A stretch of DNA of 64,000 bases from Botryllus schlosseri (GCA_051294905.1 CM119371.1:30134001-30198000); one strand, 5' to 3'; positions 1,003-60,300 are shown, counted from the stretch's first letter. Notes: generated by a model from the sequence alone, not told the origin. Translations and numbers: made by a program.

Positions 1003-4000
1003 CTAAAATAGCTTGAATTACTGGAAATTTATGTGAAGTATTTTACCGGCATCCTACCGAATATGCGTCGCCGAATGCAAGTGAATCACGATCACAGTTC
1101 CCGTACGGGTTGTCTTCGACGTTGAAGGTGTCGTTGAAAACGATCGATATAACCTGCATGAGAGAAAGATGCAACTTCTTGCGTTGGGATGCAGTGATGA
1201 GCTTCCTGTCCAAGTGACGTATGACTGAGCTATGCTTGCAAATATATATGCTATGCAAATATTACAAGGAATTAGTAAAGTGAAAGGGATACCATAAAAC
1301 TCGAAAGAAAACAAAATTCAGCTATGATCTCAAAAATGTTAACATTGCTATAACAAATAAACCATAGCTCTGTCGTCATTTAAAATCACTTCAACATGGA
1401 GTCAAATTGTTATAATTATTCCAATCCAAAGTAATAGCGTGATAATAACATTACGATTTCAAACCAAAGTGTCCTCACTAATGTGTAGCGCTAGCAATTC
1501 AGCTAAACTGTATCGATATTATAGCCTTGCGACCAAATTCCAGCCTCGACCTAATTTTGTCCGTGGATTCTTGTATACTCTGCGAAAAATCATCTAGCAA
1601 TATACTTGATAGAGCTCCTGGTAATTCTATTGTTGCTTACCATCCCCTCAGGTACTGTTATAAACCAGGAATGACACGCATTTGAATGGTAGGTCTTGGG
1701 ATAGTTCGGTGATGCAATCGTACCAGACGTTTCGTTGCTGATGACTGTGGAATTACAGGGTCCTGAAGTAAAAAAAAAAACTATAATTAGGACCAGCAGG
1801 ACTATCTAGGATTGATTTGATTGCAAGCGATATTACTAGTGAATGAAGCCTAGTTGTGAGCTTCGTTGCGCCCCATGAATAATTGCGAATTAGGAATCGT
1901 GCGCATCTCACCAAAGACCAAATTTCTTTTTCAATTAGTTGTGGTATGTGTGAGCGATCTTTTGAGTGACAATCATGTAAGTAATTACACGTGGCCCGCC
2001 CGACGATCGCCCTCCAGAAACTCATGAATATTCTTACCGACCTCATCTCCCAGAAAAAATTGATTTAGCTTGACATATAGAAATAGGCATTTCGGCGTCG
2101 TTGAAATATATATATACCGTAATTTTCCGAATATAGTGCGCCCCCGTGTATAATAAGCACCCTTAAAATGGCGTGTAAATTCTGGGGAAAAGCCTGTACC
2201 CATGTATAGTACGCATCCGGCATTCGCAGTACAAGAATGGCTGTTTTATTGTAGGCCTACGATGTCGTTCTGTTTTACGATGACACTATTCAACAATCAT
2301 GACATAATGATCGCTAATCATTATGCAATTAACGGAATTGTCTCTAAACGATAGTAGATAGCAGCCAAAGTCCGTGAGGCTGGCGACGCGATAGTTCAGG
2401 CCAGCGACACGACATCTTGAGCACGAGGTCTATTACAGATGCGATTGCTAATCATTATACAATTAACGGAATTGTCTCCTAGCGATCGTAGATAGCAGCC
2501 AAAGCCTGCGAGGCTGGCGTCGCGATAGTTAAGGCCGGCGACGCGACATCTTGCGCACGAAGCCTATCACAGATGCGATTGCTCAGGCCAATGGTTGTGT
2601 CGTGCGCACCAGGTCTGTTGGAGATGCGACTAATTACGCAAGCGATTATATCTTGCGCACATGGCCTGTTGTATATGCGATTGTTAAAGCCTGTCGTTTA
2701 CGCGATGAATTGGCGAGGTTTGCCGCGCTCGTACTCACTGCTCAGCGACCTAATTTCGCTCGCGTACAAACGGTAAACTAACTCAGCGGGAGACCGCATG
2801 CTGTGCTGCTCGGTAATTGGTATCACGCTTCTCGCTAATTGACACCGCGTTACACTGATAATACGAATTACTGGGCGCGATGGCTGAAAGTGACGCGGGA
2901 TTGGAAACAAACATGAAGAAAGGTGTCATTTCAAGTTTTCTATCGAGGGAGATTTTTTCCAAGTGTTGTTATTCCCATGTATAATACGTACCCCCCTATT
3001 TTAGGGCAAAAATAGGTAAAATTCTGCGCTGTATACATGGAAAATTACGGTAGTCGCATCTTGGCAATCTGAGAAAATGCCGCACCCCATGATGAAATGT
3101 CAACTAGTCATTGTGCGTTTCTCACGAAAGAAGTTTTCTCTTTATTTAGTTTGGTACATTTGAGCGATTCCAAAATCTTTTGCCATGTAGCAGCCGCGAG
3201 GTCACGAAATAACAACATGCCACAGACTGATTATAACAACATCGATCCCCCCCCCCCCGCAGATGATAGTTAATGAATTGTATATCCTTAACGTGCCCGA
3301 AACTTTCGAAAACACCACCTCCATTAGCTCTACCGGTAAATCTGGTCACATGGGCAATTAGGATATATGAAGAGGTGGTCAGTAACGAAGTACTTCTACT
3401 TTTTGGAAGTAATCAAGTAGTTTTCCTCTACTTCTGGTACTTACTCAAGTAGATCTGATTTTCTCTACTTCTACTTCGTAATATTTTGTGATCTAATTAC
3501 TTAATTTTCGCTATTTACAGTTTGTCAAGTAGAAGTAGTTTGATCCCGCAATGCGAAAGATAGCCTGAGGAATGTCGGGGCTGTTTTCACGGAGTACCAA
3601 CATTTATTATTCATAAAAGTCAAATTAAGCCCAGAAATTTTGTTGCGCTTCGCGCACAGTAGTTTTGGGGGACAAATATGTTTTCAGGAAAGTATCAGTG
3701 AATATAATTTAGGTACCGGATGGCTTGGTTCCGCTCACACCAAATGTTGTTCATATCAAACCTTTCATCATAGTAAATATGGCCCACCATAACGTTTGAA
3801 ACTACCGTTTCGCAATCTAACAATTACCCATCATATCGTAATCTAGCAGCCCATAACGTGTCCTGCTAATTTGGAAAATCCGGCTTTTTCGAACGTTACA
3901 CCTGTTTTAGCAGATCGCTTTTGAAGCTTTATGGACAATAGGCACGAAATATATTTTCCGCCTTTTAGAAGTGGAATTTGTATTTCACTGTCAATTCCTA

Positions 4001-57300: not shown

Positions 57301-60300
57301 ACAGTGAATCAATCAAGCCATCTAGTTGCATATAGTTCAGGCATTCTCATGCTTGGCTGGGGTTGTTGAAATTCTAGCTTGCAAGCCATCACGTTATAGA
57401 TATCATTGAGATGCGGCTAATTCAACAAATAGCTCTTTGCTGAGTAAATCAAATAGAGAACCATACTAGAAATAGTTTTATAGCATGTTTGCAAATCGCT
57501 CCATTACATTTTGTGCAATACTCGATAAAAGTTGCATTAGAAATGCTTGGAATTATTACTCAATTCAGATTCGAGTAGCCAAATCATTGTCCCCAGCCCA
57601 ATACATCAACAAGTCAAGGCGAGAACCCACCTTGTATGCTCTTACACTGTATCTTCTGCAAACAATTCAACACGTAGCATATCTCCTCTGTGCTCTTCGG
57701 CGTCCTAGAGTGTATAAGATGATGCAGCCTAGCCGCAGCCATGGCTACCAGGTCCAGTACGCCCGTGCCGATACAGCCTAACAGTAAGCGTAGACCGACG
57801 CCTGCCAGCTCGGCCCACTCGGTGGAACCAGCCAGTGAGGCGTCTGCCGCGTTGTCCCACACCATCAGCGAGTCCATCAGGTTGAATGTGTCTTCGAGCA
57901 GCTGGAATATTTCGAAGGATGTGAAAAATGTTTTATTGGACGCTTTTACGAGTTAAATTGCAGTTGAAAAGGATCGAAATAGCTCATGTATCATGGAAAC
58001 TGACTTTGTCTGATTAAAGTGCACTGAAAGATTTGGCCAGAGTAAGACAAGTGCAAAATTTTTTACTTTTCCAAATACCATTCGAATCAGAATTATAGAT
58101 AGCTTATTCCAAATTAGAATAGCATTACAATCAATGAATTGCCAAAAATCTTGGAAATGAAACAAAATTCATATCCAATTGGAGTTTAATCTGCTAATCG
58201 CGAGAATGCCAAATGTTTGTACCAAGCTCGGCTATGAATATACTATTCAATTGAGTCATATTTGCGCACTCAAAATAAGTAAATACGTCCCTGAGTAATA
58301 CCAAAACTGTTTTTCGTTCCCCTTTCCAAGATCGCCATAATAGAACATCAACATTTCATAAATCACCTTCAACGACCACACGTGCGGCACATCAGCGCTG
58401 AGATTAACCAGAAAATCGCCCGTGTGCCTGATCAGTTCCGCAGATTTGTCGGCGACGTGAATAAACGTAGACGTTGGAGCCGGCTTCGGATTCGCTGCTG
58501 TAAAAATGAGGATTTAATTTCCGGCTCCCGAGGAGTCTCTATAAAACCACTTGTTTAATCCCAATAATAGAATGCACGATGTAGAAAGATCAAATATGTA
58601 CTTTTATGCAACCACGAATAATATAATGCTAGTTTTGCATCACATTTAAGATAACTTTGTATTTTTCGGGCCACGTCTATTTCATTGCACTTTGCGACAA
58701 TGCTGCGAGTTGATCACGACCCAAAAAACGGAAGATTTTGACCTAAACAATGATATTTTCGACTTTTTTTACCCAAAAAACTTCATTTGGAAAAAATTTT
58801 GCCCTCATGCATTTAAATTGGGTGTTTTCGCACATAACGTCAGAGTTGTACTACTTATCATCTTCATTTCTGGTTGAAAACTCTTTTTGACATAAAAACT
58901 GAATAATTTTTACACGAAAAACTTTATTGTAATGAAATCTGGACCTATGAAGAATTCCAGTAGTTACATCACGTATTATGGTAGAAATAATTAAAATTTG
59001 TTTTAGTACAACGAAAAATACTTTCCTACAATCTAGGGTTTTCCTTGTCAAGTAGCTTGCCAGGAATGGAGAAAAAACGTTCAACAGCAGCAGTTGTTGG
59101 CTGGCAACTCTGAAGTTGCGTACACTGCTGGTGACACACCATGTTGTCTACAACACAATTTTTCATTATTCTTGATATAAGAACCAATGCCCACACAGTC
59201 ACGCTTCAGTTAGGATATTGCGGTACGTTGAGCATAAGACGACGTCAACCTATCTGTTTCATTTGACCATTCTACGATCCGCAATGAGCAGTCAATGGGC
59301 CGTCTACAACGGTAGGCCTATAAAGTAGGCTACAAGCTGTGAAATGTCAAATGATAAGCTCACCGACAGTGCAAACACCTATGATACAAACGAAATGCAG
59401 GTTGCGAAAAACTCAAACTTCGTCAACTAAATTTTTTGACCCAACGCTACAATTTCGACTTATGCCTGGCCCTACTAAAAACATACCGGCCGAGCCCTCA
59501 CGCAGATCGGAGCACGCCGCCTCCGTGCATAGTTCCAAGACTCTGAGCTTGAGCGCGTTCGCGGGCCTTATCAGTTCGTGAGATTTGCCCAGTTTTTGAA
59601 TGCACCCGAACACCTGGCCGCGAGCCTGAACAAGACAACAAAATATTCTCAAATTAGAGGCAAACATGAAACAAAAATGAAATTCGCTCGCCTTCCAAGC
59701 GTCTTGCGAAGTGCCGTCGATGCCTCTCCAGATGGCGAAAAACAGAATCTGCGTCACCGTGTCGAATAACTCTTCCTCGATTTCCTCTTGGCTCTCACTA
59801 GGAGTGCTGGCGTTCAGGTCCTGTAACAAATCAACCTTCAGTTTATTTTAAATCGTTGCTTCCCAACCAGTGAAGCATTTCTAAATATCGCAGTTTTCTA
59901 TTCAATATGTAATGCAAGGCTGCTATTGGTTGCTATATAATACCAGCAATCTTCTAATTGTTATGACTCGAATATGTATTAATTCTAATGATTTGTGTCT
60001 AGTAGTAACAAACTTAGAGTTAATTCATAAACAACAGTAATTATTATAGCTTGAAAACTATTTCGCAACATCGAATACTTGAAAGTTCCATTGGTAGTAT
60101 CGCAACTTACAAAACATTTAATGCAAAGCTACACACAACAGGGGTGTAATGACTTTTGGTGACTCAAATCGAGTCAATTTTTATATTGACTCGACTTGTA
60201 CCAGAGTCATTGCGCATAACTCGAACCACGTCGCATGACTCGAGACTAGGACGGCCAAGACAGACATTTCATTGTAACTTCGAATAATAGTTGGGTCACC

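Follow-up and report, generated by a model that had tools for sequence, protein, structure and literature searches.

Stereotyped micro-insertions at TA sites in the genome of Botryllus schlosseri: probable excision footprints of TA-targeting transposons

We analyzed a stretch of 64,000 nt of Botryllus schlosseri DNA (GCA_051294905.1 CM119371.1:30134001-30198000), here called the window, and followed one short motif from it into the 495.5-Mb assembly (219 contigs). The motif comprises the three words TAGGCTA, TAGCCTA and TAGGCCTA, in which GGC, GCC or GGCC stands between two TA dinucleotides. These micro-insertions are derived, lie at TA, are stereotyped and symmetric, occur genome-wide and are young. 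With a probability of about 0.7, we infer that they are footprints of excision, left by TA-targeting elements of the cut-and-paste type that belong to the Tc1/mariner superfamily and have ends starting with GG and finishing with CC. An earlier reading of the window from the DNA alone (the sequence-only reading) had proposed excision footprints of a TA-duplicating element with GGC...GCC ends. The footprint part of this proposal is supported by the polarity of the insertions, the specificity and symmetry of the words and the flanking bases; the GGC...GCC ends were not confirmed.

Results

Enrichment and distribution of the motif

In the window, TAGGCCTA occurs 7 times, compared with 0.47-1.2 expected under Markov models of orders 1-4. 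TAGCCTA occurs 7 times (2.4-5.2 expected) and TAGGCTA 5 times (2.3-3.8 expected). The seven positions given for TAGGCCTA in the sequence-only reading were all confirmed, and all 19 motif sites were found at the coordinates of Table 1. As a comparison set we used 200 kb from ten other contigs, taken as twenty pieces of 10 kb at fixed coordinates. These hold 22 copies of TAGGCCTA, where ~1.3-2.7 are expected. The word ranks 12 among the 18,015 8-mers with at least 8 counts in this set, and the words above it all come from high-copy repeats or simple sequence.

All words of the form TA-X-TA were scanned in 264 kb. For X of 3 nt, TAGGCTA/TAGCCTA was top, with 62 sites against 18 expected. For X of 4 nt, TAGGCCTA was top by far, with 29 sites against 1.8 expected. 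GGC, GCC and GGCC alone stand out among the TA-X-TA words.

Whole-genome motif numbers are pattern counts, with the reversed word of the same composition as the control for TAGGCCTA. The genome contains 43,701 copies of TAGGCCTA and 9,854 of this control, a 4.4-fold difference. TAGGCTA and TAGCCTA occur 65,749 and 65,920 times (131,669 in sum), so that the two complementary 7-mers are equally frequent; their controls occur 26,441 and 24,669 times (51,110 in sum). There are 175,370 motif sites in all, compared with ~37,700 expected from an order-2 Markov model of the 264-kb sample or 60,964 from the control words. The excess is therefore ~1.1 x 10^5 sites over the control words and ~1.4 x 10^5 over the scaled Markov expectation. 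When genome counts are set against the expectations of the 264-kb scan, the excess of the 3-nt forms over that of the 4-nt form is ~2.4 to 1. The k-mer enrichment over a Markov background on which the sequence-only reading depended is thus present, at ~13-fold for TAGGCCTA.

The first 100 sites on contig C1 show near-exponential spacing, with a mean of 10.6 kb and a coefficient of variation of 1.10. The 25-base flanks of 36 TAGGCCTA sites are unrelated to one another except at positions -1 and +1. A purine is found at -1 in 31/36 and a pyrimidine at +1 in 34/36, the background being 55% and 54%. Given such diverse flanks, the motif does not belong to any single repeat. The commonest 10-mer around the word is GTAGGCCTAC (22/58 counts), and RTAGGCCTAY is a perfect 10-bp palindrome.

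Polarity and age of the insertions

Paralogues and candidate elements were searched for in a 354-kb sample. Here 41 motif sites have a spanning paralogue, and 16 of these are derived insertions at the TA of the repeat family; at these, a single TA is the better fit for the majority of the paralogues. The sequence-only reading had named an ancestral motif in the family consensus as the opposite outcome. That outcome does not apply to these 16 sites, but the motif, or a similar sequence, is shared with paralogues at 21 of the 41; 3 further sites are mixed and 1 is undecided. The shared class includes chance look-alikes as well as families that carry the motif in their consensus, for example the 59313/59326 family. 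In the clean cases, TA has become TAGCCTA or TAGGCTA (+5) or TAGGCCTA (+6). Clean +5/+6 examples are position 17082 of the window and, elsewhere in the sample, L021:211, L036:6364, L047:1141, L042:9463 and L041:7604.

Six paralogous pairs within the window had been reported in which one copy has TA and the other the filled form. Five are derived insertions at TA, with details that differ slightly from the report, whereas 49466 aligns only weakly to 32570. At 19423 an insertion is seen, but it is +7 and messy rather than +5. The site at 18150 is indeed +5 compared with 41877, yet 2/3 other copies share its filled form.

The site at 2252 lies in a local duplication (2141-2970 and 12480-13296) whose copies are 10.3 kb apart and ~92% identical over 939 aligned bases; TAGGCCTA is present in one copy only. 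A non-coding element of ~800 bp that duplicates TA and has the ends CCGTAATTTTCC...GGAAAATTACGG was observed at ~2141-3050, at ~12465-13373 and at loci L003-L030, and has >1,000 first-look candidates.

Contigs from public runs were aligned to positions 2001-22000 at 88% identity. They are mostly paralogous and are informative at 21975 and 17083 only, and not on polymorphism. At 21975 the contigs, which may be paralogues or alleles, omit 5 letters (X1, n = 19; X7, n = 2; X5, n = 1). Directly after 17083, the paralogous contigs diverge from the window.

We also tabulated indels of any content. In this table, which is not deduplicated by family, so that family-shared events are counted repeatedly and tandem repeats are included, TA is the most duplicated dinucleotide at 5-6-nt insertions, with 59 cases against at most 18 for any other dinucleotide.

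To judge the age of the insertions, we counted the 22 single-mismatch neighbours of TAGGCCTA, a total that omits TAAGCCTA and TAGGCTTA, the ends of a hAT-type miniature inverted-repeat transposable element (MITE). The neighbours number 108 against 102 expected, whereas the intact word numbers 58 against 3.6. The surrounding repeats are 10-30% diverged. If the insertions were as old as these repeats, decayed forms should match the intact form in number. Since the neighbours are not in excess, most insertions are young. The motif is also carried in paralogues that are 85-95% identical.

Search for the source element

The sequence-only reading reported no intact GGC...GCC element in the window. 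This stands, although 19093-19356, which is a hAT-type MITE, does read TAGGC...GCCTA. Our search of the window and the 354-kb sample for an element of the form TA-GGC...GCC-TA found none either. The only candidate, from elsewhere in the genome, has the termini TA-GGG...CCC-TA, and GGC occurs in 2/102 of its exact termini. A weak inverted pair (13/16) at 3939-4734, which came out of the scan for terminal inverted repeats, does not resemble an element and was rejected.

The candidate is of the pogo type. The profile DDE_1, which is that of pogo-type transposases, has 72 matches in the genome, including several sets with equal scores whose frames of 550-640 amino acids (aa) are intact. The principal TA-duplicating transposons here may be of the pogo type. 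The candidate element is 2,892 bp long (G000:C8:8920003-8922894; this copy was read in L051 and L052) and encodes a 595-aa transposase, whose frame in L051 matches DDE_1 (PF03184) with E = 1.9e-20 and 73.6 bits, the cut-off being 22. In genome searches with the two ends, 93-99% identical copies began at L051:204, which was taken as the left boundary; the right end was read from L052. The inverted ends, GGGTAGAGTGGGG(C/T)AAAACGCC, match at 21/22 positions and have TA on both sides.

The element begins with GGGTAGAG, and a purine followed by TA and GGGTAGAG is present at 7/7 left flanks (L051 and six located by BLAST coordinates). The exact 15-mer of TA and the 13 end bases occurs 102 times in the genome, 100 times with GGG and 2 times with GGC. 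Allowing at most 3 mismatches in 22 nt gives 158 termini, or about 80 elements. The exact termini pair as full-length elements and as ~14 derivatives of ~0.95 kb, and some lie inside copies of a larger palindromic structure. A purine precedes the TA at 68/100 termini, or at 68/84 after removal of 16 that share one flank in the palindrome copies. Besides the left end in L051, an identity of 93-99% is shown by 14 other left ends and one of 85-86% by another 2. Open frames of 595 aa are found in four copies, and of 511-634 aa in others. Judged by these near-identical copies with intact frames, the family is young and was recently mobile.

The right subterminal 280 bp of the element, together with its end, also forms inward-facing inverted pairs 9-14 kb apart at at least 8 loci, ~94-95% identical to L051. 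These loci include C4:27278171-27288781, C10:25967477-25977871 and C13:21939742-21952901. The inverted pairs may be part of giant palindromic elements.

Two further observations concern other words. TACCGGTA would be the analogous scar word of the ~800-bp element described above, an abundant TA-flanked MITE with CCG...CGG ends. It is mildly enriched (16 sites in 354 kb, 9 of them within one repeat family), which is a weak hint only. TAGGCGCCTA was considered as the no-overlap product of GGC ends and rejected: it has 5 sites against 0.09 expected, all in one repeat family. At 17142-17151, 39219, L031, L034 and L045, TAGGCGCCTA or TAGGCGCCCA stands at the centre of a repeat family with mutually inverted sides (cggcgccagtcatt ... 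aatgactggcgccg).

hAT-type MITEs

MITEs of the hAT type with the ends TAGGG or TAGGC are found at five places in the window (Table 1). One such family has 3,855 first-look candidates in the genome. Clear 8-bp direct repeats, which directly adjoin TAGG...CCTA as is the pattern of hAT elements, are also present outside the window at L003, L035, L040, L044 and L046, for example TTATACAT in L003 and TTGTATAA in L035. At the motif sites such duplications are absent: the mean number of matches is 2.10/8 at 113 motif sites compared with 2.17 at 2,166 control sites.

Other features of the window

The window has a G+C content of 40% and is filled with interspersed repeats. Only three open reading frames of at least 150 aa occur in its 64 kb, one of which belongs to the XK-related family of animal proteins. 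Features apart from the motif are given at the end of Table 1.

Table 1. Motif sites and other features of the window (paralogues are those of the 354-kb sample)
Feature	Coordinates	Strand	Observation
TAGGCCTA	2252..2259		Micro-insertion inside a copy of a TA-flanked MITE family with >1000 candidates; GGCC absent from 30 other family copies; empty-TA model preferred by 25/31 paralogue regions; +6 relative to the sister copy at 12591, +4 relative to a MAFFT alignment of the family
TAGGCCTA	6698..6705		Flanks A...C; no paralogue
TAGGCCTA	10132..10139		Flanks T...T; two paralogues, one fits empty and one filled (ambiguous)
TAGGCCTA	29194..29201		Flanks G...C; no paralogue
TAGGCCTA	29679..29686		Flanks A...T; no paralogue
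TAGGCCTA	50804..50811		Flanks G...A; no paralogue
TAGGCCTA	59313..59320		In the consensus of a repeat family, hence old and inherited; 6/6 paralogues have the motif, intact or decayed (TAGGTCTA, TAAGCCTA and TGGGCCCA among the decayed forms)
TAGGCTA	59326..59332		13 bp from the 59313 site, in the same family consensus; 5/5 paralogues filled
TAGCCTA	12216..12222		Flanks G...C; no paralogue
TAGCCTA	17082..17088		Derived +5 at family TA; 9/9 paralogues read GGTA-----TTTG
TAGCCTA	17655..17661		Flanks G...C; sole paralogue fits empty better, alignment ambiguous
TAGCCTA	18150..18156		+5 against reverse copy at ~41877; form common to part of the family; of the paralogues, one empty, two filled (TAGCCTA, TAGTATA)
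TAGGCTA	19423..19429		Within insertion GTA[TAGGCTA]C, messy, +7; 5/7 paralogues fit empty; family reads AACGTACTAAAC
TAGGCTA	21975..21981		+5 against public-run contigs
TAGCCTA	21993..21999		18 bp downstream of the 21975 site
TAGGCTA	38557..38563		+5 against family TA, +3 against TATA sister copy at ~18898; 4/5 paralogues fit empty; family reads TTGTACTG
TAGGCTA	49466..49472		Flanks G...C; weak flank alignment to 32570, compatible with +5
TAGCCTA	55534..55540		Flanks G...C; no paralogue
TAGCCTA	63185..63191		Flanks A...A; no paralogue
hAT-type MITE	6133-6575		Clear 8-bp direct repeat, TGTAATGT
hAT-type MITE	19093..19356	+	264-bp look-alike, TAGGC...GCCTA; 8-bp duplication approximate; family copies have 8-bp duplications just outside TAGG(G/C)...CCTA
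hAT-type MITE	19677-19977		8-bp duplication approximate
hAT-type MITE	23975-24295		Clear 8-bp direct repeat
hAT-type MITE	56076-56694		Clear 8-bp direct repeat; 619-bp foldback with 310-nt arms, 92% complementary
Tandem array	42177-42720		25-bp unit, ~20 copies
Tandem units	30763-31329		Spaced at 36, 42 and 78 nt, within an open frame of 218 aa (30807-31463, minus strand); probably a minisatellite rather than a gene, sole Pfam match sub-threshold
Open frame, 294 aa	53859-54743	+	Matches XK-related family, E = 1.3e-12; probably an exon-sized piece of an XKR-like gene, or an intronless XKR-like gene

Discussion

We favour excision footprints as the explanation of the micro-insertions because, as predicted, they are derived at family TA sites, because GGC, GCC and GGCC are the only TA-X-TA words that stand out, and because the complementary 7-mers are equally common. 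The lack of an 8-bp duplication at the motif sites and the preference of the flanks for purine-TA...TA-pyrimidine point the same way. Moreover, the genome holds a young TA-duplicating pogo family with GG/CC ends and the same preference for a purine before TA.

Such an element would insert at TA, preferably within purine-TA-pyrimidine, and duplicate the TA. On excision, the transposase would nick the non-transferred strand a few nt inside each end, and the donor site would keep TA plus 2-3 terminal nt as 3' overhangs. End joining would then give TA-GGCC-TA, or TA-GGC-TA and TA-GCC-TA equally. Two versions of this scheme seem about equally likely. In the first, the ends are GG...CC and 2 nt would be kept on each side; direct joining would give GGCC, and one lost base or a mismatched overlap would give GGC or GCC. 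In the second, the ends are GGC...GCC and leave overhangs of 3 nt; if these overlapped fully, with a G:G mismatch in the centre, GGC or GCC would result, and a perfect 2-bp GC overlap followed by fill-in would give GGCC. Two observations fit the second version better than trimming of GG+CC: the 3-nt forms exceed the 4-nt form, and 2-nt forms (GG, CC, GC) are not seen among the TA-duplicating indels of the indel table. The pogo-type family is the best candidate source. It would fit the first version if 2 nt per end were kept, and it matches the footprints in being young and in preferring purine-TA.

Several results weigh against the footprint explanation. Apart from the weak pair at 3939-4734, scans of the window and the 354-kb sample for terminal inverted repeats found only hAT-type elements with 8-bp duplications, and none of the form TA-GG...CC-TA that duplicates 2 bp; a tblastn search of the same sequences with the pogo protein gave no match. 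Profile searches of the genome with Pfam DDE_3 (Tc1-type) and Transposase_1 also gave no match; for Transposase_1 the control genomes were likewise without a match, so that this result is little informative. No locus was seen at which element, empty site and footprint occur as paralogous or allelic states. The third base of the pogo ends is G, so GGC and GCC are not its terminal trinucleotides. TAGGGTA/TACCCTA, the words expected if 3 nt of GGG/CCC were retained, are not enriched (22 sites), and 264 kb contain no copy of TAGGGCCTA, TAGGCCCTA or TAGGGCCCTA. GCC, GGC and GGCC account for only 11 of the 59 TA-duplicating 5-6-nt insertions in the indel table. Finally, ~80 candidate elements stand against ~1.1-1.4 x 10^5 excess sites, which is a large ratio. 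An assumption-laden estimate suggests that this ratio is feasible, given ~0.03 fixed excisions per genome and generation, sustained for a few million generations.

The source could instead be a different TA-duplicating family that has 5'-GGC...GCC-3' ends and leaves overhangs of 3 nt; the pogo family would then be a bystander. This alternative overlaps with the footprint explanation, from which it departs only in the element concerned and in the number of nt retained, and we consider it less likely than not. It predicts three products, and exactly those three are enriched; the excess is larger for the 3-nt forms than for the 4-nt form, 2-nt forms are missing among the TA-duplicating indels, and several other DDE_1 families in the genome have intact frames. 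However, no such element is present in 354 kb that contain ~100 footprint-like sites, the no-overlap product TAGGCGCCTA is confined to 5 sites of one repeat family, and GGC is nearly missing from the termini of the known pogo family (2/102). Among other transposons, the outer 4 nt of the abundant hAT MITEs (TAGGG/TAGGC...CCCTA/GCCTA) are TAGG and CCTA, the same as the halves of the motif, and these families number thousands of copies. We nevertheless rejected them as the source, and remnants or footprints of these MITEs are a very improbable origin: they duplicate 8 bp, which the motif sites lack, and the motif sites are merely +5 or +6 compared with empty family copies. In hAT excision, hairpins form on the flanking DNA, and bases of the transposon ends are not left behind. 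ISL2EU was dropped as well, as the dinucleotide duplicated here is TA, whereas the 2-bp duplication of ISL2EU elements is typically AT (PMC4122938).

Explanations that involve no transposon source of this kind fare worse. Breaks at purine-TA-pyrimidine might be filled during repair with a stereotyped palindrome (AGGCCT or a shortened form), as the perfect palindrome RTAGGCCTAY and the prevalence of TA among duplicated dinucleotides at 5-6-nt insertions (59 vs at most 18) would allow, the source element being a candidate only. We regard this as improbable; to our knowledge, the addition of one fixed tetranucleotide is not a feature of any repair pathway. In rice, the fillers are heterogeneous, with lengths of 1-123 bp and a mean of 13 (PMC4423477). 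TA duplication with 2-4 fixed nt is the textbook signature of Tc1/mariner elements (PMC6943129). Programmed removal of germline-limited, TA-bounded elements from the soma would leave an assembly with scars and without elements, and would explain both the near-absence of source elements and the lack of decayed motif copies. Yet some copies are inherited through repeat families and are decaying, as in the 59313 family, which places them in heritable DNA, and a young conventional pogo family is present in the genome. We know of no chordate precedent for imprecise removal at 10^5 sites, and such a process is very unlikely here. Chance, base composition, a single repeat family or an assembly artefact might be invoked because GGCC itself is mildly enriched (170 vs 110-143 expected) and 21/41 testable sites are shared with paralogues. 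An enrichment of ~13-fold over Markov models and 4.4-fold over a word of the same composition, diverse flanks, near-exponential spacing and inheritance of the motif in 85-95% identical paralogues make any of these extremely improbable.

The proposed mechanism is a known one. Transposases of the Tc1/mariner superfamily cut the non-transferred strand a few nt inside the element, and the footprints correspond to 2-4 nt from the start or the finish of the element, giving TACAGTA or TACTGTA for Sleeping Beauty (PMC6943129). The motif of B. schlosseri resembles these in having TA on both sides with 2-4 nt between, two complementary 3-nt forms and a stereotyped product. It differs in the inserted bases (GGC/GCC/GGCC instead of CAG/CTG), in the prominence of a 4-nt palindromic form (PMC6943129), and in being a word enriched at >10^5 sites of a wild genome rather than the result of an assay, with a candidate source only. 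Excision of Passer, of the pogo superfamily, leaves 0-4 bp behind (PMC9976928), in line with GG+CC as the maximum. Our candidate shares with it the DDE_1 transposase, the short inverted ends and the TA duplication; its transposase of 595 aa is larger than the 400-500 aa reported (PMC9976928). In rice, excision repair has likewise been treated as a genome-wide source of small indels, but 86/94 excisions have flank deletions or heterogeneous filler and 8/94 are perfect (PMC4423477), whereas the product here is uniform and among the most over-represented 8-mers. The hAT MITEs of the same genome share the outer TAGG...CCTA with the motif halves and differ by their 8-bp target duplication. An earlier description of such a signature was not found in the literature searched for the word TAGGCCTA and for transposon footprints in tunicates. 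The unusual aspects are the large scale, how uniform the product is, and how far the scars outnumber the elements that survive.

We consider it possible, at somewhat less than even odds, that the ~80 pogo-type elements, or an unseen relative, scarred >10^5 TA sites (~one per 4 kb) and made their footprint one of the most over-represented words of the genome. Cut-and-paste transposons are usually counted by their remaining copies. If the footprint explanation is true, these copies are a small part of the record, with ~80 elements against >100,000 scars, and the excision of transposons would rank among the main origins of small insertions in this genome. Enriched short palindromic words, annotators should note, are not necessarily binding sites. 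Footprint words would allow past transposon activity, target preference and end-joining chemistry to be read from an assembly, and would provide a direct measure, from sequence alone, of the frequency with which DNA transposons move and excise. They would also show the repair of germline breaks, where one dominant product would imply one dominant end-joining route, and the share of excision in the indel variation of a close relative of the vertebrates.

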